Positions 17,679 through 34,291 are shown, numbered from the stretch's first letter. The stretch is DNA of 64,000 nucleotides from Chloroflexota bacterium (GCA_028287745.1 JAQBPB010000014.1:39176-103175); one strand, 5' to 3'. Notes: a model not told the origin generated them from the sequence alone. Program-made: numbers and translations.

Positions 17679-17710
17679 TACGTATTCTCCTTATCGTAAT
17701 AAAAAGTAAC

Positions 17711-18448
17711 TTAGTGTTTCAGAATCTTACTGAGAAAGAGCTTGGTCCGCTCTTCCCGGGGATTGGCGAAGAACTCTTGCGGATTTCCTTCTTCGACAAT
17801 ATTGCCTTCATCCATGAAGATTACCCGTGTGCCTACTTCACGCGCAAAGCCCATTTCGTGGGTTACGGTTACCATAGTCATACCTGAACGGGCCAGGTCA
17901 CGCATAACATTCAGGACTTCCTGAATCATTTCAGGGTCAAGGGCTGAGGTGGGTTCGTCAAAAAGCATGATCTTAGGGCTCATGCACAGCGCCCGGGCAA
18001 TGGCTACCCGCTGCTGCTGGCCGCCTGAAAGTTGCGCCGGGTAAGCTTCCGCTTTTTCTCCGATGCCGACCCGCTCCAGGAGGGCCCGGGCGGTTTTCCC
18101 GGCCTCGGTTTTGTTCATCTTGCGGACTTTCATGGGCGCCAACATCAGGTTTTGCAGGACAGTCATGTGAGGGAAAAGGTTGAACTGCTGGAAAACCATA
18201 CCAGTCTCCATGCGAACCTTGTTAATATTCGCCCGGGGAGAGGCCGTATCAATCCCATTAACTAAAAGGTTGCCTCGATCCACATTTTCCAGGTGGTTAA
18301 TACAGCGCAGGAAAGTACTTTTCCCGCTGCCGCTGGGACCGCAAACTACCACAACTTCTCCTTCGGAGATTGTGCAGTTGATACCTTTTAATACATGGTT
18401 TTTACCGAAGAATTTATGAACATCCTTAAATTCAATAACAGGGGTCAA
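17711..18448 (-). CDS. Polar amino-acid ABC transporter ATPase (GlnQ-like)
   Basis: [35 protein letters not shown] and VTHEMGFA. Confidence 0.95.
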
Positions 18449-18602
18449 AATAATACCTCTTATACTGGATAAATTCTAGATGCTGCTATTTTGCTGGGGC
18501 TGTAAGAGAACCGACTTTTATTTCCTGCTCGCCCGCGTTGGCTAAGAAGACATGCCTGCAGTATACATCAGAGTTCGTTAAATATCAAAATAACTAAGGA
18601 GA

Positions 18603-18950
18603 TTAGTCAACTTTGACCAGGAGAAATTCACCTTCAATTAAGACCGGGTAAGTCGGCAGGCAGACCGGGACCCCAGGGGAAATATTCTCGCCGGTCCGCA
18701 CATTAAACTGCCAGCGGTGCAGGTAGCAGCGGACCAGTTCGCCTTTCATATCCCCGGCCCAGAGCGGCCAGCCCTGGTGGGGGCAATTCGCCGCGAAAGC
18801 ATAATAATTGCCACTGACGTTCGCCAGCGAGAGCTTGACCGTACCGGCGGTCGCCTCGCGCACCTGACCGGGCCTGATTTCTTTTAAGCGGGCCACCCGG
18901 GTATAACCATCCTGCCGGACCGGTTCTTTATCTTTACTAAAAAGGGCCAT
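18603..18950 (-). CDS. Rieske [2Fe-2S] ferredoxin
   Basis: CPHQG...CYLH Rieske ligands. Confidence 0.9.
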   Translation of the reverse strand: MALFSKDKEPVRQDGYTRVARLKEIRPGQVREATAGTVKLSLANVSGNYYAFAANCPHQGWPLWAGDMKGELVRCYLHRWQFNVRTGENISPGVPVCLPTYPVLIEGEFLLVKVD

Positions 18951-19134
18951 AAAAATTAATCAACATAGTAAAAAGGTCAACGGATATACCGCAGTCCGTT
19001 AGATAAAACTGGTAATATTAGTAAGTTTTGCATGTCTTTAAATACCGCTGTTCCCGGTTAAACCGGCTATTTTGTAACAACTTAACGGCTTACGCCAGGA
19101 TCGAATTCCGTTAACCGTTCAACATTAGCCCCTG

Positions 19135-19671
19135 TTAAACCGGTTTTGGCGGCCAGCTAACCGGCTCGTAATCCGGCCGGTTATATTCCGGATAGGCCCA
19201 GTAATGGCGGGGTAACTTTTCTTTACCGTGATAAAGATAGTTCACCAGCGGCTCGCCCAGGCTGGGCTGGACCAATAAGGCCGGGACTTCTTTAAACGGC
19301 ACCCAGCGCACCGCCCGGACAGCCAGGTCGGACCCGGCGGTTACTTCCGGCACCCGGCTGACTTCTTCCAGCAGGGCCAACTCAAAGACACAGGTTACAA
19401 AATGCCGCCGGTCCTGGTCGGTCTTGGCATCAATTACGAATAGCAGGTCACCCGCCCGGACGGCCAGGCCGGTTTCTTCTAAAACTTCTCTTACCACGGC
19501 TTCCGGGTGTTGTTCGCCCGGTTCCAGGCGCCCGCCCGGCAGCGACCAGCTAAGTTCCGGCCTGCCGTAGTCATTACCCACCAGCAAAACCTGGCCCTGG
19601 AAAGTTAATATCCCCTGGGCGACATTATAATTGACCCATTCTCCCGGTGGCGGTGTAATAAATGATGTCAT
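19135..19671 (-). CDS. Nudix hydrolase
   Basis: Nudix box GGRLEPGEQHPEAVVREVLEETG. Confidence 0.93.
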   Translation of the reverse strand: MTSFITPPPGEWVNYNVAQGILTFQGQVLLVGNDYGRPELSWSLPGGRLEPGEQHPEAVVREVLEETGLAVRAGDLLFVIDAKTDQDRRHFVTCVFELALLEEVSRVPEVTAGSDLAVRAVRWVPFKEVPALLVQPSLGEPLVNYLYHGKEKLPRHYWAYPEYNRPDYEPVSWPPKPV

Positions 19672-20738
19672 TGGGGCAGTCCCAGTTCTTGCCGGACCTG
19701 GTCTCGCTGTCGGGCCAGGCGCGGCGTCAGCTCGGCATACACATTATTAAAGAAACCGTCCGGTGAGGGAGCCGGGTAGTCAAAGGCTTTCTGGACCTGA
19801 CCGGTTAAGTAGGCTTCGACCTCCTGCACCAGGGACATATCCCCTTTTTCATCCAGGTAGCCGCCGTCAAACAAAAAGCGCCGGAAGCGTTTGAGCGGGT
19901 CTCTGGCTTCCCACAGGCTCAAATTTTCGGGTGGGCAGTAGCGGGTTGGATCGTCGGCGGTACTGTGGGCCGCCTGGCGGTGGGTGATTGCTTCGACCAG
20001 GGTCGGGCCGCCGCCACTGCGCGCCCGGTCTACCGCTTCTCGCATCACGGCATGGACCGCCAGAATATCGTTACCATCAACCAGCCGGGCCGGGACTCCA
20101 AAGCCTACACCACGCTGGGCCAGGTGTTTCGCGGCGTATTGTTTGTGACTTGGTACGCTTATGGCCCAGCCATTATTGACCACTACCATTACCAGGGGTG
20201 ATTGAAAGACCCCGGCAAAGTTCAAAGCTTCGCTAAAATCGCCTTCGCTGGTTGCGCCATCCCCACAGGTGCCGACTACCACCGAATCTTCTTTCTTTAT
20301 TTTGGCGGCCATTGCCAGTCCGGCTGAATGCAGGGTCTGAGTGCCAATTACGATAGTAAAAGGCAGGCAGCGCACATCAGGCCCGGCCAGTTCCGGCGGG
20401 GGTGGAAAACCCCGGCAAAAGTAGGCTATTGCGGCCGGGGTAACCCCTTTTAACAAATAGCCGCCCATCTCACGGGGCGAGGCGGTCAGCCAGTCCTGGG
20501 CCAACAAAGGAGTCGCCAGGCCGACCGCAATCGCTTCCTGGCCGTTGGAAGGAATCCAGGTAGTCGCCCGGCCCTGGCGTTGGAGCGCCACCAGCTTATT
20601 GGAGAAAAGCCGGGTTAGCCACATAGTCCGGTACCACTCAAGCAGCCGGGCCGGTTCTAGACCTTCCGGCAGCGGGCCGGTCACCTGTCCATCCTGATTC
20701 AATATCTGGTAAGGTTGTTCGAATTCTTGGTTTCGCAT
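19668..20738 (-). CDS. pdhA: 2-oxoacid dehydrogenase E1 alpha subunit (PdhA/BkdA type)
   Basis: LQRQGR, ThDP motif GDGATSEGDF...VVNNGWAIS and HSTADDPTRY. Confidence 0.9.
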   Translation of the reverse strand: MRNQEFEQPYQILNQDGQVTGPLPEGLEPARLLEWYRTMWLTRLFSNKLVALQRQGRATTWIPSNGQEAIAVGLATPLLAQDWLTASPREMGGYLLKGVTPAAIAYFCRGFPPPPELAGPDVRCLPFTIVIGTQTLHSAGLAMAAKIKKEDSVVVGTCGDGATSEGDFSEALNFAGVFQSPLVMVVVNNGWAISVPSHKQYAAKHLAQRGVGFGVPARLVDGNDILAVHAVMREAVDRARSGGGPTLVEAITHRQAAHSTADDPTRYCPPENLSLWEARDPLKRFRRFLFDGGYLDEKGDMSLVQEVEAYLTGQVQKAFDYPAPSPDGFFNNVYAELTPRLARQRDQVRQELGLPQ

Positions 20739-21032
20739 GAGTCCTTATTTCATAAAGTTTATTAAAAAACCTTTACTACCAAACTCTCCACAGTATATCA
20801 TCTAGCCATTGACCCATCAAAATTCAGCTCCTTAGTTGGAATTATCAAAATGTTAACTTAATAAAGTTAAATCTTAATGCTTTTCTTACCTGTTGAGGCA
20901 TACTCCTTGCTCCTATACAAAGAAGGTGCAATTTAATTTGGAAATACTTCCCGGTTGGAAGTGAGAGTCCCGGAACAAACCGGCTTTTTGGCTGGTATGG
21001 GACCGTAGAGCAACAAGAAGGAGCAAGAAAAA

Positions 21033-21593
21033 ATGGCTGATTCGAAAACAATTTTGCAAAAATATGTCAGTGACATGTTAGCCCTGGAGTCGCACATCTA
21101 CCAGGCAATTGATAAGCAAGTTAAAGAAAACGCGGATGACCCGGAAATTAGTAGCAAGTTTTCCACTTATGCGAATACCATAAAATCGCACCGGGACGCC
21201 CTGGAATCCCGTCTGAAAGCGCTGGGTGGTGCTGCCAATAGCCCGATAAAAGAAGGCGTCGCCGCGCTTTTCGGTGTAGCGGCCGGGGTAATTGATAAAT
21301 TCCGCTCCGAAGAAGTTTCTAAAAACTTCCGGGACGATTTTACCGCCTTAAGCTTGAGTTTAGTGGCTTACCAGATGTTACATACTACCGCGCTGGGGCT
21401 GGGTGACCGCGAAACGGCCGAACTGGCCGCCGGTAATGTTAAGGACAATGCCCGGTTCGTCCGCGAGATCGAACGGCTGATGCCCAGGATTGTGGTGCGT
21501 GACCTGAAGAAGAACCATGACGAAGCGGCCCCGGCTATTAACGAGGGTGCCGTGAAAGAGACCGAGGACCTGATTACTGAAATTTGGAAGTAA
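21033..21593 (+). CDS. Ferritin-like DUF892/YciE-type stress protein
   Basis: YVSDMLALESHIYQAI, HRDALESRLKALGG and helical ferritin-like spacing; AAGGAG SD. Confidence 0.8.
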   Translation: MADSKTILQKYVSDMLALESHIYQAIDKQVKENADDPEISSKFSTYANTIKSHRDALESRLKALGGAANSPIKEGVAALFGVAAGVIDKFRSEEVSKNFRDDFTALSLSLVAYQMLHTTALGLGDRETAELAAGNVKDNARFVREIERLMPRIVVRDLKKNHDEAAPAINEGAVKETEDLITEIWK

Positions 21594-21624
21594 TCTGCCC
21601 TGTTAACTTTTCCAGGTAATAGAA

Positions 21625-21663
21625 GCTATCGCGGTAATAGGTTTGCCGCGATAGCCTTTTTTT
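21625..21663 (+). terminator. Intrinsic terminator
   Basis: GCTATCGCGG / CCGCGATAGC stem followed by a T run. Confidence 0.85.
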
Positions 21664-21953
21664 GTGTTTTATCCTGATAGTTATTTTGCTGGCTTTATTC
21701 GAAGGCAGGCTTAAAGCTTGGTATAATGTTCGGTAGAGAGGGCGCATCGGGTTCGCCGGTTATAAATAAAACTGATTTTTGGGTTTGAGGCTGCAAGGGA
21801 AACGGCCCGGACAATCCTATTAAACCGAGCTGCTCGAAAAAGTGTACAATAGCGCCGCTCGAATTGTTTTGCAGACGGTTTATCTTTAAACCTGATTTTG
21901 AGGAACTGGCCGGTCGCGTAGTTTGTGCGACCCTAACTATCTGTAGAGAATAC

Positions 21954-22430
21954 ATGGAAAACTTGGACGAAAACCTTCTTGAGATGATTTTAGATTTGGA
22001 TAGCCGGGTGACAAGGCGAATCAGGGCCGGCTGGCCCGGCTCCTGGATGCAGGTCACTTTACCGCCGGGCCACATCCGGGCCTTATTTATTATTGAGGCC
22101 GGTGGGGCCAGGACGCCGCGTGAGGTCGCCAGCCTGTTACAAATAGGCCGGACCTCAGTCACAGGGTTGCTTGACCGCCTGGAAATGGAAGGGCTGTTAA
22201 CACGTTCGATTGACCAGGCCGACAAGCGCAGTTTCATCCTGGATTTAACCGCTAAAGGCAAGGCGATGGTCCAACAGATTGATGACATCCGGCGGCAGCA
22301 GGTCCGCAACGGCCTGGTCTTGATGGGAAAATCGGACCTGGTAGCTCTGAGGACCGGGCTGGCTGCCCTTTCGACAGCCCTATCAAGCCAGACCTTACCC
22401 GTCAACCTGGAAACTGAACCTGAAGACTAG
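21954..22430 (+). CDS. MarR family transcriptional regulator
   Basis: TPREVASLLQIGRTSVTGLLDRLEMEGLLTRSIDQADKRSFILDLT. Start placed at ATG 21954. Confidence 0.9.
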   Translation: MENLDENLLEMILDLDSRVTRRIRAGWPGSWMQVTLPPGHIRALFIIEAGGARTPREVASLLQIGRTSVTGLLDRLEMEGLLTRSIDQADKRSFILDLTAKGKAMVQQIDDIRRQQVRNGLVLMGKSDLVALRTGLAALSTALSSQTLPVNLETEPED

Positions 22431-22807
22431 GGACAGGTTCCCGGTCTTTAAGGGTTGCCCTGGTTTAACTCGATTACTAAAGTTGAGCCTTACCTGCTGT
22501 CCCGTACCTGGAATGTGTAAAATGGGTTATTTCAAAGTAACCCTTTTCAATTCCTCCGGGCGTTGGCCGTAGGGACGCACATTTGCTTAATTTATAAAAC
22601 AGTCATTACCGGCCGGATCATCTCTGTCATTTTTATTTCTTCCCGGATCTGGTTGTATTTATTATATTTCTGGCCCGGTTGCCAATTACTTCAAAACAAT
22701 GCCTGAGAGGAACTGGATTTTGTTGTCGTGGACTGAAAACACGGCGAATTTAAAAGTCCTGTTAATATGGCACTATATTTGTAGCAGCGGGCCTTTAAAG
22801 GTGTTTT

Positions 22808-24871
22808 TTGGCAATAATAAATAGTACCAACCAGCCACCAGGCTTGCGCGGCAAGTTCCGGAAATTTTCGTATGCTCCACGCCCGGTTGACCTTTTGTGG
22901 TTGCTTCTTTTCCTCATACTACTGCCAGAAGTAATCCGGTTCTTTATTCATTCCTGGCAGGTTTTAACCTGGGAATGGCAGATTGATTTCGATGAGGGGT
23001 TTAACCTGGATGCCAGTTGGAAGCTGGCTAATGGCGTTAATATTTACGGCCAGGCCCAACCCGATCAATTTATTGCTGCGCCCTATCCGCCTGTCTACTA
23101 TATCCTGTGCGCCGCGTTCCAGAAGGTATTTGGTTACGGAATGCTGGGCGGCCGCCTGATTTCATTTGTCTCTTCCCTGGCGATTGGCCTATTTATTTTT
23201 CTCTTTGCCCGCCGCTTATCGCTAACCTATTTCAAGCTGGGCCGGGTAGACGCTTTTCTGGCCGGGTTGCTGGGGCTGTTTACCTGGTTGTCGCTGAATG
23301 TGACCCTGGTCTGGGGCACCTTTTTTAAACAGGATATGCTGGCTATGGCCCTGGCTATCGCCGGACTGTGGTTTACCTGGCGCTGGGTTGACCAGGAAAT
23401 AGGACGCTGGTCCATGCTGCTAGCGGCCGGGCTGTTGACGCTGGGTTTTTATACCAAACAAAACGAATTGGCGGCCCTGGGGGTTGGCTGGCTATATGTC
23501 GTCCTTAAAGACTGGCGGCGGGGCTTAAAATTTGGCATAACCCTGGCGGTTATGCTGGCGGTGCCTTTCCTGGTCCTTGACCTGTTAACAAAACACCGCT
23601 TTTATTTTGATGTTTTCGTGGCCCAACAGGTTCCCTGGATCCTTGATGATTTCCTGCGGCGGTTGACCACCCGGATTTTGCCCGATCACCTGCTGCTGAT
23701 TGTCCTGGCCCTGGTCTTTAGCCTGCTGGCTCTTAATGGGCTGGTCCGGAAATGGGCCAAACGCGAATGGCATGCCCCTCACATGGTGTTGATCTGGCTG
23801 GCAGGCGGCACTTTTACCCTGATAACGGTCGGTTCTTACCAGAGCGGCTACAACCACGCCCTGAACTTTTTCCCGCCCGTAGTTGTAGGGGCGGCCGGGG
23901 TTATGGCCTGGTTAATCAGCCTGGCCGGCCGGGCCGGACAGGGCCAAAGGCAACTGGCTTTCGGCCTGGCGGCCCTGGCGGTAGCGGGCGGGCTGGCCTG
24001 GCAGTTTTATCATTATGCCGATAGCAACCTGTATTACTCGGCCGGAAATATGCCCTCACAGGTCCGCCGCGAAATGCTGGAAGGGCTGGTCAAGCAGGTT
24101 GGACAGGCCCCCGGCGATATTTTATCGGAAGACATTTACCTTCAACTTAAAACCGGCCGCCCGGTAATTTATGACGACCTGTATCATATGGCCCTGCAAG
24201 CCGAAGCCGGGCAGTGGGATGAAAGCCGCTTTGTAGCGGATTTAAAAGCCCGGCGCTTCAGTGTCATTTTGCTGGGTCAGGGTTCCCGCCGCTTTACCGA
24301 TACGGGCTGGGAAGCTTTGAACGCCAACTACCGCCTGATTTTCCCGGACGGTATCGCCTTATGGCGGCCCCGCCCGCAACCTCTCTTGCCGCAGCACCAG
24401 GTGGATTGTGAGGTCGGAAATACGTTTGCCTTCAAAGGAGTTAGCTATGGCCGTCCGGGGAATGACAGGGACTTAAACCTGACTACTTACTGGCAGGCCC
24501 AGGCTAAAGCGGCTGAGAATTATACTTTCTTTGTCCACCTTTTGGACCCTTCCGGTAAAGTGGTGGCCCAGCGTGACGCGCCGCCGAGCGGGTGGCGGAT
24601 TGCCAACCCCCAGGCTCTTATCAAAGAAATGCAGGATTTACCGCAGACCCAGGAACAGCCGCTTCCGGCTACCACGTGGGCCAGCGGAGATAGTATGCTG
24701 ATTAATCAGACCTTGCCGCTACCGGCCGGGACAAAGCTGACGGGGGATTACCGCCTGATTGTGGGAGCTTATAGTCTGAAGAGTAACGGCGAGCTGAATT
24801 CATTAGCGGTTAGTTGTGCCACGCCCGGTGCCGCCAGCGAGAACGTTATCAATTTGCCGCCGCCACGTTAA
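22808..24871 (+). CDS. Multi-TM GT-C (ArnT/PMT-like) glycosyltransferase-type membrane protein with a C-terminal extracellular domain
   Basis: DFDEG in the first loop, YPPVYY, GRLISF, KQDMLA, YTKQN and a C-terminal NYTFFVHLLD...QRDAPP domain. Confidence 0.75.
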   Translation: MAIINSTNQPPGLRGKFRKFSYAPRPVDLLWLLLFLILLPEVIRFFIHSWQVLTWEWQIDFDEGFNLDASWKLANGVNIYGQAQPDQFIAAPYPPVYYILCAAFQKVFGYGMLGGRLISFVSSLAIGLFIFLFARRLSLTYFKLGRVDAFLAGLLGLFTWLSLNVTLVWGTFFKQDMLAMALAIAGLWFTWRWVDQEIGRWSMLLAAGLLTLGFYTKQNELAALGVGWLYVVLKDWRRGLKFGITLAVMLAVPFLVLDLLTKHRFYFDVFVAQQVPWILDDFLRRLTTRILPDHLLLIVLALVFSLLALNGLVRKWAKREWHAPHMVLIWLAGGTFTLITVGSYQSGYNHALNFFPPVVVGAAGVMAWLISLAGRAGQGQRQLAFGLAALAVAGGLAWQFYHYADSNLYYSAGNMPSQVRREMLEGLVKQVGQAPGDILSEDIYLQLKTGRPVIYDDLYHMALQAEAGQWDESRFVADLKARRFSVILLGQGSRRFTDTGWEALNANYRLIFPDGIALWRPRPQPLLPQHQVDCEVGNTFAFKGVSYGRPGNDRDLNLTTYWQAQAKAAENYTFFVHLLDPSGKVVAQRDAPPSGWRIANPQALIKEMQDLPQTQEQPLPATTWASGDSMLINQTLPLPAGTKLTGDYRLIVGAYSLKSNGELNSLAVSCATPGAASENVINLPPPR

Positions 24872-24920
24872 GTTCTGGCGTCTGGCTGGGCACCCAAAAA
24901 TTATAAATTCAGCCTGGTGC

Positions 24921-25187
24921 TTAAAACAAACCAAAACTAAGGCAGGCCAGGACCAGTAAAACCAGCCCAACCGCGAATAGCGCCAGGGCCAGGCGGCGCT
25001 GCAAGCCGCTGCTCCGCACCAACCGGCCATGGTCGGTATGGGCCGCGATACCCCTGGCGAAAACTTCGGCTTTTCCGGCGGGGTTAAACCCGGCTACCTG
25101 CTTTAACCACCAGGCCCGGCGGCAGTAGACGTACGCGCCAATTTCGCTGGCCCGGATAACCGGTTTCTTAGCTCTGGGTTTGCTCAT
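24921..25187 (-). CDS. Small protein with a Cas4/AddB-like N-terminal motif and a C-terminal TM helix
   Basis: IRASEIGAYVYCRRAWWL...RGIAAH followed by a hydrophobic C-terminus. Confidence 0.75.
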   Translation of the reverse strand: MSKPRAKKPVIRASEIGAYVYCRRAWWLKQVAGFNPAGKAEVFARGIAAHTDHGRLVRSSGLQRRLALALFAVGLVLLVLACLSFGLF

Positions 25188-25209
25188 AAATTTTCTCTGG
25201 AAGACTAAA

Positions 25210-25626
25210 TTACCGGAGGGAACGGCTGGAGCCCAGCCGGAAGCCCTGGACCGCTAACTGGCGCAGGTGCAAAAGGCCCAGGTGGGTCATACCTTCGGTT
25301 TCAGTATGCAATACCGCTCGCTGTAAGTAAATATCCTGTAAGTCTTCTTCGCCCAGGGAAGGGGTCTCGCGGGGATTTTCGAGATTAAAAGATAGACCGG
25401 CAAAGTTATCAAAAACATTGATCAATGCGCCGACAACCGTCCTTTCGGTTTCACCGGTAAAAGGTCCGGTGCGCTGGAGCCTTTCCGAAAGGAGCCGGTA
25501 ATAAGTTCTAGCCGGTATCAATTCGCCTTCGATTATTCGCCCGCCAATCAGGAGTGTACAGTTAATCTCCAGCTCCATTTGCGGCAGGTTATTGATCAGG
25601 TTGATCAGAAATTCAAGTTCGCGCAT
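25210..25626 (-). CDS. GvpU-like protein (stand-alone)
   Basis: Pattern [I/C]TLLIGGRIIEGELIPARTYY...IYL..A...VQGFRLG resembles GvpU. An alternative TTG start lies at 25641. Confidence 0.6.
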   Translation of the reverse strand: MRELEFLINLINNLPQMELEINCTLLIGGRIIEGELIPARTYYRLLSERLQRTGPFTGETERTVVGALINVFDNFAGLSFNLENPRETPSLGEEDLQDIYLQRAVLHTETEGMTHLGLLHLRQLAVQGFRLGSSRSLR

Positions 25627-25662
25627 TTTAACCAGGCACAATCTTCTCTAAAGCAATAAACT

Positions 25663-25702
25663 GAAAAACCCCGCTGACCTGACGGCCGACGGGGCTTTTT
25701 TC
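25663..25702 (-). terminator. Intrinsic terminator or attenuator hairpin
   Basis: Minus strand AGCCCCG...CGGGGTT followed by TTT; G-U pairs form only on the minus strand. Confidence 0.75.
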
Positions 25703-25776
25703 ATATGGACTTTTAATCCCCTTTCAACTAATCACAAATGAAACTTGCATTTCATAATAATCAACTTAAAAGGATC

Positions 25777-25833
25777 TTATCTATCCACCTGATATCTCAT
25801 TAAGTAAACGTGCAGTTTGACGTTTGGAAACAT
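25777..25833 (-). CDS. Unannotated 18-aa small ORF (MFPNVKLHVYLMRYQVDR)
   Basis: Strong SD AGGAAGGGAGG about 9 nt before the ATG, with its own promoter and terminator. Confidence 0.55.
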   Translation of the reverse strand: MFPNVKLHVYLMRYQVDR

Positions 25834-25901
25834 TACTGTTGTCCTCCCTTCCTGCTTTTGCTTTTTGAGGTACATTTGGCTTGCGCCTTTGGTACGTAAT
25901 C

Positions 25902-25930
25902 ATACTAGCATAGAAAATCGATTCCGTCAA
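25902..25930 (-). promoter_or_regulatory. Sigma70-type promoter
   Basis: TTGACG-N17-TAGTAT with a TGn extension on the minus strand. Confidence 0.7.
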
Positions 25931-26141
25931 CCCCTTTCAGCCCCTAGATATGACTTTTTAATATACATTTAATGTTAGGCTAACTATATTAATAATAGGC
26001 ATTTATAATAGTCATTATACTACTTCCCACCCAGGCGGAGCTTCTAAAGGTCTGTTATTTGCTTCATTACAAGGTATCTTTTGCCGGACGGAATAGCCGG
26101 GCTGGAATAAGGACCGGTCAGGCCCGGGGAACAGGAAAATA

Positions 26142-27704
26142 ATGAGCCGCAAAGCAATAATAGTCGGGGCGGGCCATAACGGCCTGGTGGCGGCCTGCTA
26201 CCTGGCAAAAGCCGGGTGCCAGGTTGAAGTTCTGGAGGCCGGGGACAGGCCCGGCGGCGGCGCTCGCACGGACGAACGGCTGCCGGGTTACCGCTTTGAT
26301 ATGCACTCGGTTGCCCATAATATTATTAATATGACCAGCATACCCCGCGAACTTGATTTAAAAGGGGCCGGGCTATCCTACCATCAAATGGACCCTTTTA
26401 TGGTCGCCGTCCGGGCCGATGGCAAAAGAGTCCGCTTCTACCGTTCGCTGGAAAAGACCCTCGAGTCAATCGCCGGGTACGACCCGGAAGAAGCCGAAAC
26501 TTACGCCCAGTTTATGCGGCTTGCCATGCCCCTGGTGAAACTGGTCATGCCCGCTATCCGGGGCGACACCAATCCTTTCAAAGCCTACCCGCCGTTAATC
26601 CCCGAGCTGATCAAAGCACTGCGGCTGGAAGGCGGGCCGTTAAACCTGGCCCGTGACCTGTTGAGCCCCTATGAATCCTTACTCAAGCGGCGGCTCAAGA
26701 GCGACCTGACACGCGGGCCGGTCAGCGCCTACGCGGCCCACGGCAGCCTCGGTCCCAATGTGCCGGGCGCGGCCTTTTTCACTTTCTGGCAGGCCGCTTT
26801 TCATCTTTACGGGCAGTGGCACGCCATCGGCGGCTCGGAAGCCCTGGTAAAAGCACTCGTGTGCCGCCTCGAAACGCTTGGCGGCAAAGTCCGCTGCCAG
26901 GCCCCGGTGGCCCGAATTGAACACCGCGCCGGGCAGGTCCGAGCGGTCGTCCTGGAAAACGGCGAGCGGTTGGAAACTGCGGCGGTAATAACGGCCATGC
27001 ACCCCCGGACGGCCTTACTTGACTTGTTGGAACCACCCTTAACCGGCAAAATCGTGAAAGAAGTGGCGGCCTTGCGCACTTCCAACGTGGTCCAGGGGTT
27101 GGTCCATGTCGCGGTGGACCGCCTGCCGCCTTACCCCGATATCCGGCCGGAAGATTACCTGGGAATGCAAAGTTTTGTTGATAACCTGGATGAGATGACC
27201 CAGGGTTTTATCCAGGCTGAGGCCGGTTACCTGCCGGACCCTTTGCCGCTCTACGCTTTCACAAACTCCTCCTCCGACCCCAGCCTGACCGATACGCCCG
27301 GCCATCACACCGTCTACCTGGCCTGCCCTTCAACCCCGGCCCGCCTGAAAAAAGGCGGCCTGGCCGGGTGGGACGGCCCGCTTAAAGAGGTCTTCCTGGA
27401 GCAGAGTTTAGCGGGTCTGGAAGCCCGCGCCCCTGGCTTCCGGGACACTATCCGGGGCGCGGCGGCTTTCACTCCTCTTGAGATGGAAAAATTAAGCCGC
27501 TGGCCGCTCGGCCACCCGATGTACCTGGACCTGAGCCTGGACCAGCTTGGTTTATTCCGGCCCACCCGCAGCCTGGCAAACCACCGTACCCCCGTAGCAG
27601 GGCTTTATCTTTCCGGCGCTGGGACTGCCCCGGTCGGCGGAATCGCCGGGACTCCCGGCAAAAAAGCGGCTATGGCCCTTTTGAAAGATTGGAAGATAAT
27701 TTAG
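26142..27704 (+). CDS. Phytoene-desaturase-like FAD oxidoreductase (COG1233 type)
   Basis: IIVGAGHNGLVAACYLAKAG, GGSEAL and TPVAGLYLSGAGTAPVGGI. Confidence 0.88.
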   Translation: MSRKAIIVGAGHNGLVAACYLAKAGCQVEVLEAGDRPGGGARTDERLPGYRFDMHSVAHNIINMTSIPRELDLKGAGLSYHQMDPFMVAVRADGKRVRFYRSLEKTLESIAGYDPEEAETYAQFMRLAMPLVKLVMPAIRGDTNPFKAYPPLIPELIKALRLEGGPLNLARDLLSPYESLLKRRLKSDLTRGPVSAYAAHGSLGPNVPGAAFFTFWQAAFHLYGQWHAIGGSEALVKALVCRLETLGGKVRCQAPVARIEHRAGQVRAVVLENGERLETAAVITAMHPRTALLDLLEPPLTGKIVKEVAALRTSNVVQGLVHVAVDRLPPYPDIRPEDYLGMQSFVDNLDEMTQGFIQAEAGYLPDPLPLYAFTNSSSDPSLTDTPGHHTVYLACPSTPARLKKGGLAGWDGPLKEVFLEQSLAGLEARAPGFRDTIRGAAAFTPLEMEKLSRWPLGHPMYLDLSLDQLGLFRPTRSLANHRTPVAGLYLSGAGTAPVGGIAGTPGKKAAMALLKDWKII

Positions 27705-29698
27705 AAGTGGAAGCCCAACAGGTTCCAGTAAAGCAGGAAAACTACGAATACCAGTGCGGTCAGCGTTAGCAGGGTGTAATAAAGGCGGCCCCAGGCGGTC
27801 CAATAGCGGTTTTTCCAGGCCAGGGCGGTCCCGGCCACTAATACAGGGGTTAGCAGGGTGGTTATAAGCGGCAGGCAGAGTAGCGGCAGCAGCACCACCG
27901 GCACGCCGTACATAAAATCATCCCGGTAGGCCACAATTGTAATACCCAGGCCGCTCAAGAATACCAGGCTCAGGATGGAATAGACCAGCGAAATGCGCCA
28001 GAGCAGGTGGGGAGTATCCGGAATCTTGGTCTTGAATTTATCCGCCTGGCTGCCTTTTTTTAGGTTGGTGGCGGCCCAGACCAGCGGCCCGAGGGTGAAA
28101 ATCAGGGCAATGCCACCGGCCAGCATTATCTGGAAAAAACCCTGCTCGTACCAATCCAATTTCTGGTAATCGTTCAGGCCGACGAACATATTGGTGACGT
28201 TTCCCAGCCCATCCTGCTCGAAATACAGGTATTCATTGCTAAAGGCGTTGCCCTCGACCAGCCTGAAAAGCTGCGGTTCGATTTCAACCCAGTGGCTGGG
28301 ACGGTACAACTGGCTGTCCGTGGGTAACATTATTGTTCCATCCGGGTTAGCAATTACCCGGCCCTGGACTGTGACCGCAAAAAGTTTTTCCAGGGAAGTA
28401 CGATTATAACGGCTGGACCGGTAAACCCCGGCAAACCGGGCCACATCTTCGGTTCTGGTAGCAATCGCCGCCGGTGGTTTAACCGGCGTGGCCGGTGGGA
28501 AATAGCGGTCGATGAATTCCTGGGCCAGCTTTTCGCGGGGCATATTAATATCCCGGTTGTAAGAGACAAAGAAGCCCACCTGCTTGTCCGGGATTAAAAG
28601 CAGCAGGCTGGCAAAGCCCGGCCAGTTGCCCTCGTGGTAGAGCGCCCGGATACCGTTGTGAAAATATTCATCAAAGCCGTAAGTAATCCCGTTTAAGGCC
28701 GGGTGATGGGTGTACTGGCGGGTTTGCAGTTCCTGGACCGTTTTCGGCTGTAATATCTGCTTATTCTCATAGCGGCCCGCTTGCAACTGGGCCAGCATAA
28801 AATGGGCAATATCGTTGGCGGAAGCGTTCAAAGCCCCGGCCGGGGCGATTTGCTGGTAATCGAAGGGCAGCGGTTGCAGGCTGTTCCAGGCGTACTTGTA
28901 GCCGGTGGCCCGGGAGGCCGCCTGCTCCTGGGAAGTTGTAAAACTGCTGTAACGCATATCCAGCGGCTGCAAGATGTTCGTCTGGACATAATCTTCAAAA
29001 GGTTTGCCCGTAATGGTTTCAACCAGGTGTCCGGCCAGGGCATACCCGTGGTTGGAATAAGTGTAGCTTTCTTGCTGACCGGGCGGTTCGACCAGGGCTG
29101 GTAGCCGACGTTTCAGATATTCGCCAAGCGGCAACACGTCCTCCGGGTTCCGGGTGGCAATACCGATTTCCTGTTCTTCAAACCCGGCGGTATGGGTTAA
29201 AAGGTTAGCGATAGTTACCGGGCGGCCAAAATTATTGGTCAGCTTGAAATCCGGCAGGTAGCGATTTACATCATCTTGCAGGTTCAGCTTGCCCTGTTCG
29301 GCCAGTTGCATAATGGCGGTAGCGACAAATAATTTGGAAATCGACCCCACTCGGAAAAGGGTCTGCTCCGGTGAAATTGGGTGGGTCCGGGCGGTGGTCG
29401 TAAAGCCGTAACCCTTGCTGAAAGAAAGCTGCCCATCTTTAACCAGGGAAAAGGTCGCCCCGGTCAGGTGGTAGCGGGCCATCTGGTCAGCGAAAAAGTT
29501 ATCCAGGTAAGTTTCCAAAGCGGCCCGGTTAGAAAGGTCAGCCGGGGCGTCATCTTCTGAGGCCCTGAACTGGGCCGCCGGTGACGCGTAGGGAATAGAC
29601 CCGGCCCTGGCACTATCTTTCAGACCCACCAGGCCGGGCAGGAGCATGCAGATCAGTATAACTAATGACCACAGTCGATTTTTCGGAAATGTCCCCAT
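27701..29698 (-). CDS. Serine hydrolase (beta-lactamase/AmpC family) with a signal peptide and C-terminal TM helices
   Basis: FRVGSISK (SxxK), LLTHTAGF, YSNHGY (YxN), HEG and 3 C-terminal TMs. Confidence 0.9.
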   Translation of the reverse strand: MGTFPKNRLWSLVILICMLLPGLVGLKDSARAGSIPYASPAAQFRASEDDAPADLSNRAALETYLDNFFADQMARYHLTGATFSLVKDGQLSFSKGYGFTTTARTHPISPEQTLFRVGSISKLFVATAIMQLAEQGKLNLQDDVNRYLPDFKLTNNFGRPVTIANLLTHTAGFEEQEIGIATRNPEDVLPLGEYLKRRLPALVEPPGQQESYTYSNHGYALAGHLVETITGKPFEDYVQTNILQPLDMRYSSFTTSQEQAASRATGYKYAWNSLQPLPFDYQQIAPAGALNASANDIAHFMLAQLQAGRYENKQILQPKTVQELQTRQYTHHPALNGITYGFDEYFHNGIRALYHEGNWPGFASLLLLIPDKQVGFFVSYNRDINMPREKLAQEFIDRYFPPATPVKPPAAIATRTEDVARFAGVYRSSRYNRTSLEKLFAVTVQGRVIANPDGTIMLPTDSQLYRPSHWVEIEPQLFRLVEGNAFSNEYLYFEQDGLGNVTNMFVGLNDYQKLDWYEQGFFQIMLAGGIALIFTLGPLVWAATNLKKGSQADKFKTKIPDTPHLLWRISLVYSILSLVFLSGLGITIVAYRDDFMYGVPVVLLPLLCLPLITTLLTPVLVAGTALAWKNRYWTAWGRLYYTLLTLTALVFVVFLLYWNLLGFHF

Positions 29699-29996
29699 TC
29701 ATTGATCCATTAACCATGTTTTATGAAACACTAACCCGTGACGGCTTATATGTCATCTAGGATAATAGAAGTGGGGGTCCCTGGCAAGTCTAATCAATAA
29801 AAGGCCCCTTTTTGGAGAAGCCCGCAAGTCTTTGGAGGTTCAAGAAAGGGTGTTGGAGTAACTTTCACAAAGAATTTTGTATAAATTTGATTAGTAGCTA
29901 ATTAGCGTTATAATGCTACTATTACATTGTACTCAAGCCGTTTGTGAAAACCTAAACCGCCAAATTTAGCCAACTGAACTACTCAGGAGTAGCGTT

Positions 29997-30752
29997 ATGA
30001 CTCAAATGCAGCCGCCGTTAACCCTTTCACTTATCACTTCGCTACTTTCATTTCCCCAGCCGCCCTCTTTCCCACGGCCGCCCTCCTTGCCGCAACCTCC
30101 TTCGCTACCTCAAGTACCACAGGTACCGACGGTCCACGGTCCGACTTTCCAGGGGCCGACCTTTCAGGGGCCATCCTTAAATGGCACAACCTTGCAGGGC
30201 CCCTCGATGCAAGGCCCCTCTTTCCAGGGGCCTTCAATGCAGGGTGGCCCATCTATGCCGCCTTCGTCTAACGGGACCAGGTCAGGGGAAAGAGCCGGTT
30301 TCTGGTTGGGCGTGCTTATTTTCGTGTGGTCGCTGGCTTTTATCGCGATCATTGTCTTACTCTTATATATAGCCGGTATAAACCCCTTAAACTTCCAAAA
30401 ATATAAGTCGCAGGCGGTCCTGGAAGCTTTTACCGGTGCCGGGCTGGAAGTCTCACGACCGGCCGGTTTTGGCTCTACCAACGGTTTTGGTAACCAGGTG
30501 GTCCCATTTACCTACCAGGACGGGTTTAATTTTGCTATCCCCGGCTCCGGTGCTAACGCCACCGGCAATATAACCAGTTTTAGTACAGGGTCCGAACTCG
30601 ATAAAGCTAAAATTTACCTGGCAAACCTGGCCAATGCCGGTACAACTTCTTACCGGGTATTTACCAGGGATAATATTTTGATCTACCTGACCAACGTGAC
30701 GTCCGAAGTTAAAGCCAAACAATATGAGGCCGTCCTGCTCAGTTTGAAATAG
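29997..30752 (+). CDS. Single-pass membrane protein with Pro-rich and pentapeptide repeats
   Basis: AGGAG SD, GP[ST][FLM]Q repeats and a TM segment at about residues 101-127. Confidence 0.75.
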   Translation: MTQMQPPLTLSLITSLLSFPQPPSFPRPPSLPQPPSLPQVPQVPTVHGPTFQGPTFQGPSLNGTTLQGPSMQGPSFQGPSMQGGPSMPPSSNGTRSGERAGFWLGVLIFVWSLAFIAIIVLLLYIAGINPLNFQKYKSQAVLEAFTGAGLEVSRPAGFGSTNGFGNQVVPFTYQDGFNFAIPGSGANATGNITSFSTGSELDKAKIYLANLANAGTTSYRVFTRDNILIYLTNVTSEVKAKQYEAVLLSLK

Positions 30753-30819
30753 GCTACAGCTTTTTTTGACGGGTAAGGCCCAATTCCCCCCGAATTTTTA
30801 TAAAAAGCTGAAAATCGGC

Positions 30820-30848
30820 TTGACATTCGAGGTCGGAATTGTTATACT
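30820..30848 (+). promoter_or_regulatory. Sigma70 promoter of the tRNA gene
   Basis: TTGACA-N17-TATACT. Confidence 0.9.
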
Positions 30849-30869
30849 GACCAACGTCAAAAACATTAT

Positions 30870-30943
30870 GCGCCTGTAGCTCAGTTGGATAGAGCGTTTG
30901 GTTGCGGACCAAAAGGTCAGGGGTCCGAGTCCCTTCAGGCGTA
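30870..30943 (+). tRNA. tRNA-Arg, anticodon GCG (CCA not encoded)
   Basis: Cloverleaf with acceptor GCGCCTG/CAGGCGT, D-arm TAGCTCAGTTGGATAGAGC and anticodon arm TTTGG-TTGCGGA-CCAAA. Confidence 0.92.
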
Positions 30944-30966
30944 TCACAGTGACACCAATAACGATT

Positions 30967-31000
30967 GAGGCTCAAATTAACTTTTGAGCCTCTTTTGTTG
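30967..31000 (+). terminator. tRNA terminator
   Basis: GAGGCTCAAA / TTTGAGCCTC stem followed by a T-rich tail. Confidence 0.85.
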
Positions 31001-31228
31001 TATAAGGAGTCACTACTCGCACCTTATGTCTTAGTGAAAAGGCCCGCTCGACATTATAAGAAATTTATTCTTGGATCAGAAAACTTTAATTTGCTACATG
31101 TAACCAATTGGGTTCCCTACCTTTGTAGAAGCAATGGGCGGTGCAATAAAAGTATTTGAAAGTATCAAGAACAGAAAAGAAGCGGGTGAGTAAATGCTTA
31201 CTTATAACCCTGTGAACCTTCCATGAGA

Positions 31229-31455
31229 GGCTATCCTTTAACCGGGGTAGCCCTTTTGATTTTTACCATGCTTTCACCAGGCTAATCCCTACTAACACTA
31301 CCGCTCCTGGCGAGGGCGCACACGCCTCCCTGTTAACGGCGGGTTCATTTCTTCCCTTTTGCCCGCCGTGTAGCTACCCTCGGTTCTTATACGCAAAGCC
31401 GGGACTCTTTCAGAGAGTATCCCAGTGACAGCGAAATCCGGCCAGGGGCTGGGTT
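31229..31455. ncRNA. Candidate structured non-coding RNA (class unresolved; 6S-like possible)
   Basis: GC-rich non-coding island with several long pairings: 31240-51/31373-85, 31336-43/31362-69, 31304-11/31441-48 and 31401-08/31414-23. Confidence 0.45.
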
Positions 31456-31550
31456 ATTGTGGTTTAAAAGCCTAGCTTTAGTTAAAAACGCTGGGTATAA
31501 TAAAGCGCTGGTTTTATTTTTGTAATCATTAAAAGTGGGAAAGTGACGCT

Positions 31551-32357
31551 ATGGCCCTAAAAATTGCTACCTGGAACGTCAATTCAATTGCCGCCCGGCT
31601 GCCTCTTGCCACCCAATGGCTGGAAAGCTATCTTCCCGAACAACGGCCGGATATTATTTGTCTTCAGGAAATAAAGTGTGTTGACGAGAAGTTCCCGGCA
31701 GCCGCCTTTGCCAGCCTGGGCTACCAGTCGCTTGTCTACGGGCAACCGGCCTATAACGGCGTGGCTATCCTGGTGAAAGATGAAATGGCGGCCGGTATAA
31801 CCGAAATTCAAAAGGGTATGCCCGGCGAAGAGGAAGGCGCTCCCCGCCGGTTGCTATCGGCGGTTATAAATGGCTTGCGCGTGGTCAACGTCTATATTCC
31901 CAACGGCCAGGCGGTCGGCGCTGAAAAGTATTATTACAAACTGGACTGGCTGGCCCGCTTGCGAGCTTACTTTGACAGCCTGGGCGATAACAGCCAGCCG
32001 GTGGTATTGCTGGGTGACTTTAATGTCGCGCCCGACCCGCTGGATGTCTACGACCCGGCGGTCTGGGAAGGCAAGATTTTGTTCAGCCAGCCCGAAAAGC
32101 AAGCCCTCCAGGTGGTTAAAGATTGGGGCCTTATTGACACCTTCCGGACCCTCTACCCGGACACGGTGGCTTTTTCCTGGTGGGACTACCGCCAGGCCGG
32201 TTTCCGCCGCAACCTGGGCCTCCGGATTGACCATATCTGGGTGACTCCGCCGCTCATGCAGGTGTGCCGGGAAGTTGTAATTGAAAAGGAACCGCGCGGC
32301 TGGGAACGTCCTTCCGACCATACGCCGGTCGTAGCAACTTTTGAGCTGGTAAAGTAA
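31551..32357 (+). CDS. xth: Exodeoxyribonuclease III
   Basis: KIATWNVNSI, LQEIK, YNGVAIL, NVYIPNG, GDFN, RIDHI and SDHTPV. Confidence 0.96.
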   Translation: MALKIATWNVNSIAARLPLATQWLESYLPEQRPDIICLQEIKCVDEKFPAAAFASLGYQSLVYGQPAYNGVAILVKDEMAAGITEIQKGMPGEEEGAPRRLLSAVINGLRVVNVYIPNGQAVGAEKYYYKLDWLARLRAYFDSLGDNSQPVVLLGDFNVAPDPLDVYDPAVWEGKILFSQPEKQALQVVKDWGLIDTFRTLYPDTVAFSWWDYRQAGFRRNLGLRIDHIWVTPPLMQVCREVVIEKEPRGWERPSDHTPVVATFELVK

Positions 32358-33143
32358 ATGGATAACAGCCTTTTTCCACCGGATAATCCTTTCCCGGCTT
32401 TAGACCGGCCGGTTAAAATTGGTTGTTCCGGTTATTCTTACAAACACTGGCGCGAGGTCTTTTACCCGGCTCGACTGGCGGCTAACCGCTGGCTGGAATA
32501 TTACACCCACTTCTTTCCGACGGTCGAGCTTAATACAACCTTTTACAACATGCCCGGCCAGAAAACTTTCGAGGCCTGGGTTAGAAATACCCCGGAAGGT
32601 TTTATCTATTCGGTCAAAGCCTACCGCCTGATAACCCACATGAAGAAGTTGAATGAGCCGCAAGAACCCCTGGCAAAATTCTACGAACGGGTGGCAGCGC
32701 TTGGCCCGAAACTCGGCCCGCTCCTGTACCAGCTTCCGCCGAACTGGCACTACAACCATGACCGCCTGGTCGAATTTCTAAAACTGCTCCCGCCCGATAA
32801 GCAGCACACTATTGAAATCCGCGACCCTAGCTGGCTGAATGACCGCTTCTTTTCGGCGCTGTCCGACTACCAGGTGGCTTACTGTATCAGCAGTTTACCG
32901 CATTATAAAACCCCGGTCGTGCGGACCGCGCCATTCAGTTATTTCCGTTTTCACGGCAGCGGCAAGATGTATGAGTATGATTATTCGCTGGAAGAATTAC
33001 AGTTCTGGCGGGACGAAATCCTGCGGCTGCATGGTGACGGACACCCGGTCTATGTCTACTTCGATAACGACCCCTACGGCTGGGCGGTTAAAAATGCCCG
33101 GCAACTCATTGGACTGGTCAATGAGGCCGGGCCGTTAGCCTAG
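32358..33143 (+). CDS. DUF72 (YecE-like) TIM-barrel protein
   Basis: IGCSGYSYKHW...FYP, TVELNTTFY, LYQLPP, YFRFHG and YVYFDND. Confidence 0.92.
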   Translation: MDNSLFPPDNPFPALDRPVKIGCSGYSYKHWREVFYPARLAANRWLEYYTHFFPTVELNTTFYNMPGQKTFEAWVRNTPEGFIYSVKAYRLITHMKKLNEPQEPLAKFYERVAALGPKLGPLLYQLPPNWHYNHDRLVEFLKLLPPDKQHTIEIRDPSWLNDRFFSALSDYQVAYCISSLPHYKTPVVRTAPFSYFRFHGSGKMYEYDYSLEELQFWRDEILRLHGDGHPVYVYFDNDPYGWAVKNARQLIGLVNEAGPLA

Positions 33144-34291
33144 ACCGGTGATTTACCGACTATCCGGGCGTAGTTGGTCGGGTCGGTCGCGCCTTCGGTG
33201 CTGATAAGCAGTACCCGCGAGGTTCTGGTTATACCCAGTCTTTCCCGCATTTCCGCCGAATGCTCCCCGGTCAAAATCTCGAGCAAGCCGCCCAGCCCGG
33301 AAGCGCCGGTCTCCCCCGAAGTTATCCCGGACTCGGCCAGCTTTCGCATGCCCTCGCGGGCCCTTTCATCCTCAATCGCCAGGAACAGGTCAATGCCGCC
33401 GGAAAGCAGCGGCCAGGCCACCGGCGAAGGCGTCCCGCAATTAAGCCCGGCCATAATTGAAGTATGCGGTCCTGGCACAGTGACAATTTTACCGGCCTGC
33501 ATAGAAGCCAGGGCGCAATCCGCGCTGACCGGCTCGATACTGACTAAAGCGGGCCGAGCGGCTTGCCCCGGCTGGCGATAATGCCGGACCATGGCCGCCG
33601 CCAGCGCTCCCACGCCTACCTGGACCAGGGCTACGTCCGGCCCGTCGGTGCTCCACCTTTGCAGTTCTTCGTCAATTTCCCAGAAAATAGTCGAATAGCC
33701 TTCGGCAATCCAGCCCGGCACTACCTCGTAACCCGGCCAGGAAGTATCCGAAATGACCAGGCAGCGCTCCCCGGCTTCACGTGAGGCCAGTTCAACCGCA
33801 TCATCATAGCTGCCCTGGACTTCCGTGACGCTGGCCCCTTCGCTTTGAATACCTTTGATACGGGCCTCGGCGGTCCCGGCCGGGACAAAAATGCGGGCTT
33901 CCAGGCCCAACCAGCGGGCCATCCGGGCAACCGCCCGGCCGTGGTTGCCATCGGTTGCGGTTGCCAGGGCTAGCGGTTGGAGAGCCGCCAGTTGGGTTTT
34001 AACTTCATCCAGGGTCTGCCAGGGTTTGAAAGGGCCGAACCGTTCTTCCAGCGCCCGGTAAGTCGCCCAGGAGGCTCCTAGAATTTTGAAGGCGGGCAGT
34101 CCCAGCCGCCAGGACTCGTCTTTTACCCACAGGCCTCCCAGGCCCAGTTGCTCCGCCAGCGGTGCGGCATTTACCAGGCGGGAAGGGGCATAACCGGGCA
34201 GTTTCCGATGGAAATCCAGGGGTTCCCGGCTGACCGGCTCAACCTCCAACCGGTCTTTTACATTCGGGTTAAAATAAAATGGAGCCTCCAT
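33140..34291 (-). CDS. Diaminopropionate ammonia-lyase family PLP enzyme
   Basis: KDESWRLGLPAFKILG, TATDGNHGRAVA, QVGVGALA, MAGLNCG and STEGATDP. Confidence 0.9.
   Translation of the reverse strand: MEAPFYFNPNVKDRLEVEPVSREPLDFHRKLPGYAPSRLVNAAPLAEQLGLGGLWVKDESWRLGLPAFKILGASWATYRALEERFGPFKPWQTLDEVKTQLAALQPLALATATDGNHGRAVARMARWLGLEARIFVPAGTAEARIKGIQSEGASVTEVQGSYDDAVELASREAGERCLVISDTSWPGYEVVPGWIAEGYSTIFWEIDEELQRWSTDGPDVALVQVGVGALAAAMVRHYRQPGQAARPALVSIEPVSADCALASMQAGKIVTVPGPHTSIMAGLNCGTPSPVAWPLLSGGIDLFLAIEDERAREGMRKLAESGITSGETGASGLGGLLEILTGEHSAEMRERLGITRTSRVLLISTEGATDPTNYARIVGKSPV

Follow-up and report, generated by a model that had tools for sequence, protein, structure and literature searches.

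Which kind of element lies on the minus strand at positions 25930 to 25663 of a 64,000-nt stretch of DNA from a Chloroflexota bacterium (GCA_028287745.1, JAQBPB010000014.1:39176-103175), directly upstream of a gene for a GvpU-like protein? The whole of that stretch is referred to here as the window, and all positions are counted from its first letter. A preliminary description, made from the sequence alone, had proposed a complete small transcription unit with an open reading frame (ORF) for an 18-aa peptide, and had left two readings: an independent small protein or dual-function small RNA (sRNA), or a leader-peptide attenuator controlling the genes downstream. The unit, complete from promoter to terminator, was supported both by a discrete and abundant transcript and by coding conservation in 12 homologues. 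Between the two readings the data do not decide, yet they weigh against a classical attenuator. The reading favoured here, to which we give an even chance, is a genuine small-protein gene with a leaky terminator, the mRNA of which is structurally armoured and possibly dual-function.

The transcription unit and its RNA

The elements of the unit, together with their occurrence in the homologues described below, were as follows.

25925-25930, minus strand: -35 hexamer TTGACG, found by direct reading and by scan; TTGAC[GTA] with a 17-nt spacer in 12/12 homologues
25902-25910, minus strand: extended -10 element, TGc plus TAGTAT; TGn-TAnnnT kept in 12/12 homologues
25895, minus strand: transcription start G, 7 nt past the -10 box, where the RNA contigs of runs X21 and X22 end
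25870-25895, minus strand: P1, 5'-terminal hairpin GUAC..GGC-GCAA-GCC..GUAC; in 12/12 homologues, with compensatory changes
25867-25870, minus strand: conserved CCUC/CUC(A) tract 3' of P1; nearly invariant in the alignment
25843-25847, minus strand: Shine-Dalgarno (SD) sequence GGAGG; in 12/12 homologues
25826-25844, minus strand: P_SD, small GNRA-capped hairpin; a prediction only, in 11/12 homologues
25777-25833, minus strand: 18-codon ORF plus TAA, MFPNVKLHVYLMRYQVDR; coding signature in 12 homologues
25701-25792, minus strand: P4, long hairpin, its base UCAgGUGGAU:GUCCAUaUGA formed from codons 15-17 and its lower stem CCUUUU:GAAAGG; z = -5.7; RNAalifold on 12 sequences
25664-25700, minus strand: intrinsic terminator made of an A-tract, GCCCCGUCGGCC-GUCA-GGUCAGCGGGG and U5; by reading and folding; in 12/12 homologues

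Direct reading bore out all the elements of the first description at the positions given there. The promoter consists of TTGACG at 25930-25925, a 17-nt spacer with a terminal TGc, and TAGTAT at 25907-25902, and a consensus promoter scan independently reported the same site (9/12 with TG). The leader, given as ~60 nt, measured 62 nt. The SD sequence AGGAAGGGAGG at 25853-25843 contains GGAGG (25847-25843) at a spacing of 9 nt from the ATG, and the ORF runs from ATG at 25833 to TAA at 25779-25777 with 18 sense codons. The AUGAAA/UUUCAU stem was confirmed as well, and proved to be the apex of a long hairpin (25792-25701). The terminator, a hairpin followed by U5 at 25700-25664, lies just ahead of the GvpU-like gene as had been stated, with 37 nt from the U-tract to the ATG at 25626. 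The claim that G-U pairs allow the terminator to form on this strand only was right in part: the strand bias is real, but most of it comes from the long hairpin, and folding of the terminator core is possible on the plus strand as well. ViennaRNA gave the terminator a stem of 11+4 bp, which a simple scan had missed, since it accepts uninterrupted stems with a loop of 3-8 nt and no others.

The window matched contigs of a soil metagenome, and each of four metatranscriptome runs of that soil study held one contig of ~200 nt, extending from 25691 or 25696 to 25895. The approximate word depth of this contig was 26, 354, 56 and 232 in the four runs, which were of 60-84 Mb, whereas DNA runs of 1.7-1.95 Gb covered the locus at only 12-16x. 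The RNA was therefore enriched several hundred-fold per sequenced base. Over positions 16000-35999, the other transcripts in these runs were a gene at ~20.9-21.6 kb (3-16x) and short tRNA words. No RNA mapped to the GvpU-like gene in the same runs, and the downstream genes were undetected among the assembled contigs of 14 RNA runs.

The contigs also inform on the 5' end and the strand. Those of runs X21 and X22 both ended exactly at 25895; the X22 contig ran on beyond this position into CCC and the Illumina adapter, and in run X23 the opposite end of the contig was joined to the read-1 adapter. The CCC with adapter would be the mark left by template switching at an RNA 5' end, with the start at G25895, 7 nt past the -10 box, and the orientation of the adapters would correspond to a minus-strand RNA.

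Expression extended beyond the one soil. Two runs from two other studies also held the RNA (25698-25880), with one listed change, a synonymous TTA to TTG. At least 13 soil metatranscriptomes, belonging to six further studies, contained the orthologue at locus L008, and the same pattern was seen in the eight runs that were compared with the locus. When other soil metatranscriptomes were matched to the window at 80% likeness, further variants of the family were found to be expressed, at up to 196-438x. These aligned across the SD-ORF core only, and their differences were either synonymous or the known replacements of Y10 by F or L.

Conservation of the peptide and of the RNA structure

Homologues were obtained from the loci of 24 relatives of the neighbouring 138-aa protein and from one scan of GTDB genomes with a 17-nt ORF pattern. 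Among the matches listed, the scan contributed L027, L050, L080 and L105 as new true matches, most others being chance; the taxonomic range is therefore a minimum. At least 12 distinct homologues of the RNA were recovered, all from metagenome-assembled genomes labelled Chloroflexia, Chloroflexi or Chloroflexota; one of the carriers, bacterium 54-19, is placed by NCBI in Candidatus (Ca.) Chloroheliales. Eight of the 12 were located through the neighbouring protein and not through the ORF, and the presence of the ORF in these is therefore an unbiased observation. A degenerate 51-nt pattern of the ORF recovered only the already-known 54-19 genome, and the exact terminator pattern gave no matches in JGI metagenome contigs.

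The unit was conserved in these relatives, with the promoter, P1, GGAGG, the ORF, the long hairpin and the terminator common to all 12. The leader was 61-69 nt long, and GGAGG stood 7-10 nt from the ATG in every case. The region from the stop codon to the terminator hairpin measured 63-185 nt. The terminator, CCCCGUnGGCCGnnAGGUCAnCGGGGU5-6, was nearly invariant in all 12 and carries a GNRA-like loop.

The peptide consensus is M[FY]P[NT][VI]K[RL][HQ]V[YLF]LMRYQVD, followed by R, N, T or S; in L105 the ORF extends four codons further (...DNSGSF). Across codons 2-17 of the 12 homologues, which are phylogenetically related and thus yield counts of non-independent events, variable columns at codon positions 1, 2 and 3 numbered 4, 4 and 12 of 16 each, and the pairwise ratio of non-synonymous to synonymous differences (pN/pS) was 0.15. 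Leu11 was encoded by CTA, CTG, CTT, TTA or TTG and Arg7 by CGG or AGG. The stop codon remained in register in 11/12 homologues while switching between TAA, TAG and TGA, and both other forward frames of the same stretch contain stops. RNA structure alone cannot produce this codon periodicity. The purifying selection on the amino-acid sequence points to an ORF that is translated and to a peptide whose sequence matters. Two of its codons are rare among the genes of the window (AGA, 3% of Arg; CCA, 9% of Pro); AGA was invariant at codon 13 in 12 genomes, and one expressed variant had AGG there.

The RNA from 25895 to 25655 on the minus strand folded at -74.9 kcal/mol (z = -5.7), with none of 200 shuffles as good, compared to z = -2.4 for the plus strand of the same stretch. 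P1 began at +1 or +2 in all 12 homologues despite their differing sequences, and a GUA[CU] motif lay 6-8 nt past the -10 box in eight of them. In a sequence-only alignment, RNAalifold found compensatory changes in six of the seven P1 pairs, with 94% of cells paired; the covariation score was reached by 0/500 shuffles, and slid registers dropped to 20-42% paired. The CCUC tract finds one complement in the SD and another in the UGAG of codons 12-13. The second of these pairings, which is predicted and showed no covariation, was present in the minimum free energy structure of five homologues. The small hairpin P_SD, predicted at -4.6 to -5.7 kcal/mol in 11/12 homologues, would pair the 3' half of the SD with codons 2-3 and place the AUG in its loop and stem.

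The long hairpin P4 is closed by the last codons (UCAgGUGGAY:GUCCAUaUGA) and has a lower stem of CUUUUU:AAAGGG; both were recovered by RNAalifold from the 12 sequences, mostly through changes from G-C to G-U. Its apex varied from ~20 to ~140 nt between homologues, and that of the window carries a U-GCAA-G loop. An insertion of ~100-140 nt was present in the apex at L003:4700-4900, L005:5640-5790 and L105 (minus strand, ~3560-3400). The three share GGAAYUUGYAAAG, and GCGAACUUUCUGCCGG occurs in both L003 and L005. Other large apical insertions were seen in L136 and L137, and the apical insertions had no Rfam match. A palindrome within the ORF (codons 9-17) was considered as region 1:2 of an attenuator and was dropped, being strong in only 4/12 homologues.

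At gathering thresholds, Rfam 15 identified only a tRNA in the window, and a permissive search of 25300-26300 gave nothing better than E = 1.8, to a terminator shape only. Seven of the homologue loci likewise matched no Rfam family beyond a chance-level terminator shape. Neither Pfam nor NCBIfam matched the 22-aa variant of the peptide in L105, and no mention of the peptide was found in the literature searched. We accordingly regard the unit as a family of its own, new among kinds of element that are already known.

The downstream operon and its surroundings

Two genes follow the terminator in the window.

25210-25626, minus strand: downstream gene 1, 138-aa GvpU-like protein; no strong SD; follows the RNA in 10/11 assessable loci
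24921-25187, minus strand: downstream gene 2, 88-aa protein, hydrophobic in a C-terminal segment, with a motif like the N-terminus of Cas4

In every assessable locus, the unit stood directly upstream of an operon of GvpU-like, PhoU and ~88-aa genes, the composition of which varies. At L105 the RNA was directly followed by PhoU and an 87-aa gene, and proteins of 86-95 aa closed the operon in L005, L008, L027, L105 and L135. The upstream genes differed at nearly every locus and encoded, among others, an oxidoreductase, a beta-lactamase-family protein, a ROK protein, a hydrolase, FGAR-AT, a HEAT-repeat protein, an epimerase and an ABC permease. Six loci had a gap of 28-42 nt between the terminator and the GvpU-like ATG, and four had one of 67-186 nt. 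Two of the long spacers, at L133 and L027, were scanned, and the only consensus promoter found was that of the RNA. A promoter of the operon's own in these spacers was considered and rejected: a conserved TATAAT is present but no -35, and nothing reached the scan threshold. The gap in the window contains one other promoter-like site, which overlaps the GvpU-like start codon. In L005, the terminator and the GvpU-like gene are separated by an inverted repeat at L005:5840-6000 (CCGTAGGGGCG...CGCCCCTAC), which is long, rich in GC and similar to repetitive extragenic palindromic (REP) elements.

The gene labels of the preliminary description held to a limited extent. GvpU-like corresponds to a weak N-terminal match to NCBIfam NF041667 (E 4.6e-5, 23.7 bits against a cutoff of 70, residues 5-52 only), and Cas4 to a match below threshold (E 0.035). 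An outright identification of the first gene as GvpU was rejected, as the score is below the NF041667 cutoff and no gvp genes are nearby. For an AlphaFold model of this protein, with a predicted local distance difference test (pLDDT) score of 67, the best fold matches in the PDB were all Sm/LSm proteins at non-significant values (E 0.2-2; template modelling (TM) score 0.27-0.30 on the query). There was no Pfam match to LSM or Hfq, and no sequence relative in the PDB. The modelled Sm/LSm likeness may be taken as a lead only; if it is true, the location of a gene for an RNA-binding protein beside that of an abundant RNA would be noteworthy.

More distant GvpU-like genes (64-72% identity) occurred without the small RNA. 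In three loci (L011:5671-5972, L012:5677-5979 and L013:2251-2499), the gene was found 22-41 nt behind a pair of genes for tRNA-Ser(CGA) and tRNA-Ser(GGA). At L010:5900-6000, where the GvpU-like protein is 72% identical, a TTGACT-N18-TATATG promoter and a 5' hairpin lie directly ahead of the gene; the small ORF, the long hairpin and the terminator are absent, and the direct repeats GATTTTAGA / CCTTCGAT are located upstream. The operon thus seems to be placed repeatedly right behind strongly expressed genes for stable RNAs, which suggests that its expression by leak-through from such genes is a recurring theme.

Further features of the region were recorded. The gene for tRNA-Arg(GCG) at 30869-30945 on the plus strand has a near-consensus promoter, TTGACA-17-TATACT with TG (11/12), and is followed by a bidirectional terminator (30967-30992); the style of this promoter (unit 30820-30992) matches that of the small RNA. 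The stretch 20924-21593, the only other one within 20 kb that was clearly expressed (3-16x), overlaps a DUF892-family gene called at the matching position of L001, and its expression is a hint that the sampled cells were under stress or stationary. At 29997-30752 on the plus strand, a 251-aa ORF encodes a low-complexity N-terminal half rich in Pro and Gln (repeats of PPSLPQ and GPTFQGPS) and, after it, a hydrophobic segment, with no Pfam family on record. Over 26163-26216, foreign contigs from both DNA and RNA runs piled up on 50 nt, to a depth of ~170x compared to 12x in the flanks. This peak is attributed to cross-mapping from other organisms because the segment encodes the conserved dinucleotide-binding motif with which the gene begins for an oxidoreductase dependent on flavin adenine dinucleotide (FAD).

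Small-protein gene, attenuator or riboregulator

Purifying selection was found together with a start codon, SD and stop codon conserved in register, as expected of a small-protein gene, and a dual-function sRNA would show what was seen here, an abundant and discrete small transcript that has a promoter and a terminator to itself. In the proposed mechanism, a strong extended -10 promoter of the sigma-70 type would fire at G25895 and yield an RNA of ~232 nt, closed at its 5' end by P1 and at its 3' end by P4 and a very stable intrinsic terminator. Armoured by these hairpins, the RNA would accumulate far above the neighbouring transcripts, and its consensus SD and 18-codon ORF would be translated. 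Since the terminator lies 28-42 nt from the operon in six loci and no other consensus promoter was found, the unit is probably also the leader of the operon. A small fraction of polymerases passing the terminator would then express the GvpU-like, PhoU and 88-aa genes, and the leak would result in a steep ratio of peptide to operon expression. The unit is physically tied to the downstream operon, and probably transcriptionally too.

A tiny first gene followed by a leaky terminator is a known means of setting stoichiometry, as in pqqA/pqqB-E, sboA/alb and gvpA/gvpC. The unit resembles pqqA, sboA and gvpA in having a tiny first cistron, far more transcript than the downstream genes, and a hairpin or terminator in between. 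It differs from them in that no radical-SAM (S-adenosylmethionine), protease, cyclase or gas-vesicle genes are near it, and in that its peptide is shorter than typical precursors and has no Cys or Glu/Tyr motifs. As to a partner for the peptide, our guess would be one of the GvpU-like, PhoU and ~88-aa proteins. GvpU of B. megaterium has been proposed to bind a shell protein at its C-terminal tail (bioRxiv 10.1101/2023.06.01.543273), and by extension the GvpU-like neighbour could bind the peptide.

Several points weigh against the small-protein gene with a leaky terminator. The RNA evidence consists of assembled contigs rather than reads, so that depths are rough, and the strand is taken from the orientation of adapters. 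The contigs in the window end 28-35 nt short of the predicted 3' end. Contigs of the L008 orthologue lose similar lengths at their ends (12-20 nt and 22-26 nt), for which reason the shortfall is read as an edge effect; 3' processing could also be its cause. The sole support for read-through is a single contig at 2.7x (run X38, L008:5849-6009) that spans the L008 terminator into the GvpU-like gene, and this may be either a read-through transcript or contaminating DNA. Rare codons, and an SD and AUG within a predicted hairpin, would be unusual for a protein needed in bulk. Finally, a peptide of 18 aa stays within the ribosomal exit tunnel until its release, which fits a nascent peptide acting in cis equally well.

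The alternative that survives best is a regulated leader-peptide attenuator, which we consider possible and, on balance, doubtful. The nascent peptide or its slow rare codons would pause the ribosome near the end of the ORF; the pause would open the base of P4, alter stopping at the terminator and switch the operon on, and the abundant RNA would be the terminated leader. The layout is that of an attenuator, a short and presumably translated ORF flanked by a promoter and an intrinsic terminator, with the genes directly behind, in the textbook order of promoter, ~62-nt leader, SD, 18-codon ORF, overlapping hairpin, terminator and an operon ATG 28-42 nt on. The length of the peptide is typical of leader peptides (TrpL, 14 aa; MgtL, 17 aa; ErmCL, 19 aa; TnaC, 24 aa), and the downstream genes were silent in situ with the leader abundant. 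The invariance of the rare AGA at codon 13 in 12 genomes would fit a pause, but one expressed variant has AGG at this position. The amino-acid sequence rather than the codon content is conserved, as in arrest peptides, and there are no runs of codons for any one amino acid. However, neither the final residue (R, N, T or S) nor the stop codon is constant, and in L105 the stop is displaced by four codons, which argues against arrest at termination.

Folding bears on the same alternative. A ribosome at the stop codon would free the GGGG of P4 to pair with the CCCC of the terminator in the window, L006 and L133, but this alternative pairing comprises just 3-4 bp and, in truncated transcripts, was present in 3-5 of the 12 homologues. 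The pairing probability of the terminator was ~1 in all 12, whether the ORF end was masked or not. No conserved antiterminator was found in the 12 homologues when transcripts were folded with the ribosome masked or were truncated, as far as equilibrium folding can show. The distance from stop codon to terminator ranges over 63-185 nt with large P4 insertions. Moreover, L010 has a similar promoter without ORF or terminator, and in L011-L013 tRNA-Ser genes occupy that position.

With the attenuators trpL, hisL and pheL, the unit shares a short ORF led by an SD, an ORF end that lies in a hairpin, a terminator before the operon and an accumulating leader. Unlike them, it has neither tandem regulatory codons nor a conserved antiterminator, its distance from ORF to terminator varies about three-fold, and amino acids instead of codons are conserved. 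The arrest peptides TnaC, SpeFL, ErmBL/ErmCL and PepNL, the last of which is a regulatory arrest peptide described in PMC11890864, are likewise very short, conserved throughout, contained within the exit tunnel and encoded upstream of candidate targets. They differ from the present peptide, which has neither a constant residue ahead of the stop nor a constant stop codon, is four codons longer in one homologue, and has no antibiotic-resistance or catabolic gene downstream. The MRYQVD-R of the peptide may bear a loose, local resemblance to the MRNVD-K of ErmBL.

A variant that dispenses with the classical antiterminator hairpin is a sensory nascent peptide, whereby a ribosome held on LMRYQVD would open the base of P4 and raise read-through, into the PhoU-type operon, of a terminator that is otherwise close to absolute. 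We regard this as having a slim chance. If true, it would constitute a new kind of peptide-dependent attenuator in uncultured soil Chloroflexia, the terminated leader being kept as a stable, abundant RNA.

Alternatively, the RNA itself may be the main effector, as a trans-acting or protein-binding riboregulator in which the ORF is secondary or controls conformation; this we judge unlikely. The RNA is as abundant and discrete as housekeeping sRNAs and is structured from end to end with GNRA-capped hairpins. Its CCUC tract, A-rich linker and terminator with U-tail recall seed and chaperone-binding modules, but the single-stranded regions outside the ORF are short and not universal (L136 has no CCUC), and the P4 apex is hypervariable. 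Some nucleotides of the ORF (AGA, GUGGAC) are more constant than coding requires; against this, the ORF as a whole is the best-conserved part of the RNA and shows codon periodicity. The GvpU-like model retrieved only Sm/LSm folds, and not significantly, with E values of 0.2-2 on a model of pLDDT 67 and with neither Pfam LSM nor Hfq in support. No antisense partner or Rfam relative was found. RNAIII/hld, SgrS/SgrT and SR1/SR1P are comparable in being discrete, abundant, structured RNAs of ~200-330 nt that end in a terminator and contain a small conserved ORF. The present unit differs from these in that the ORF is its best-conserved part and the RNA is fixed in cis before one operon.

That the ORF is a chance frame in a non-coding structured RNA or an ordinary 5' untranslated region, with no peptide made, is highly improbable: codons 9-17 are near-palindromic and some conservation there could be structural, but the palindrome hairpin is strong in only 4/12 homologues, the other two forward frames contain stops, and the 4/4/12 pattern, the pN/pS of 0.15, the five Leu codons at one site, the three stop codons at the same position and the conserved consensus SD at the correct spacing all argue for coding. 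A type I toxin-antitoxin system was rejected, as the peptide is charged with no hydrophobic span, there is no conserved antisense promoter-terminator pair, and the plus strand folds weakly. The 6S RNA, transfer-messenger RNA (tmRNA) and ribosomally synthesized and post-translationally modified peptide (RiPP) precursor classes were rejected too, being a misfit in architecture, neighbouring genes or peptide chemistry.

The locus was missed by gene callers and by Rfam, yet it gives by far the top transcript in 16000-35999. It is a candidate marker, and probably an important physiological component, of a group of uncultured soil Chloroflexia related to Ca. Chloroheliales. The ORF is a well-supported addition to the small set of conserved bacterial micro-ORFs of fewer than 20 codons, and the unit offers a testable system for a peptide that may act in trans, in cis on the ribosome that makes it, or jointly with its GvpU-like and PhoU neighbours.

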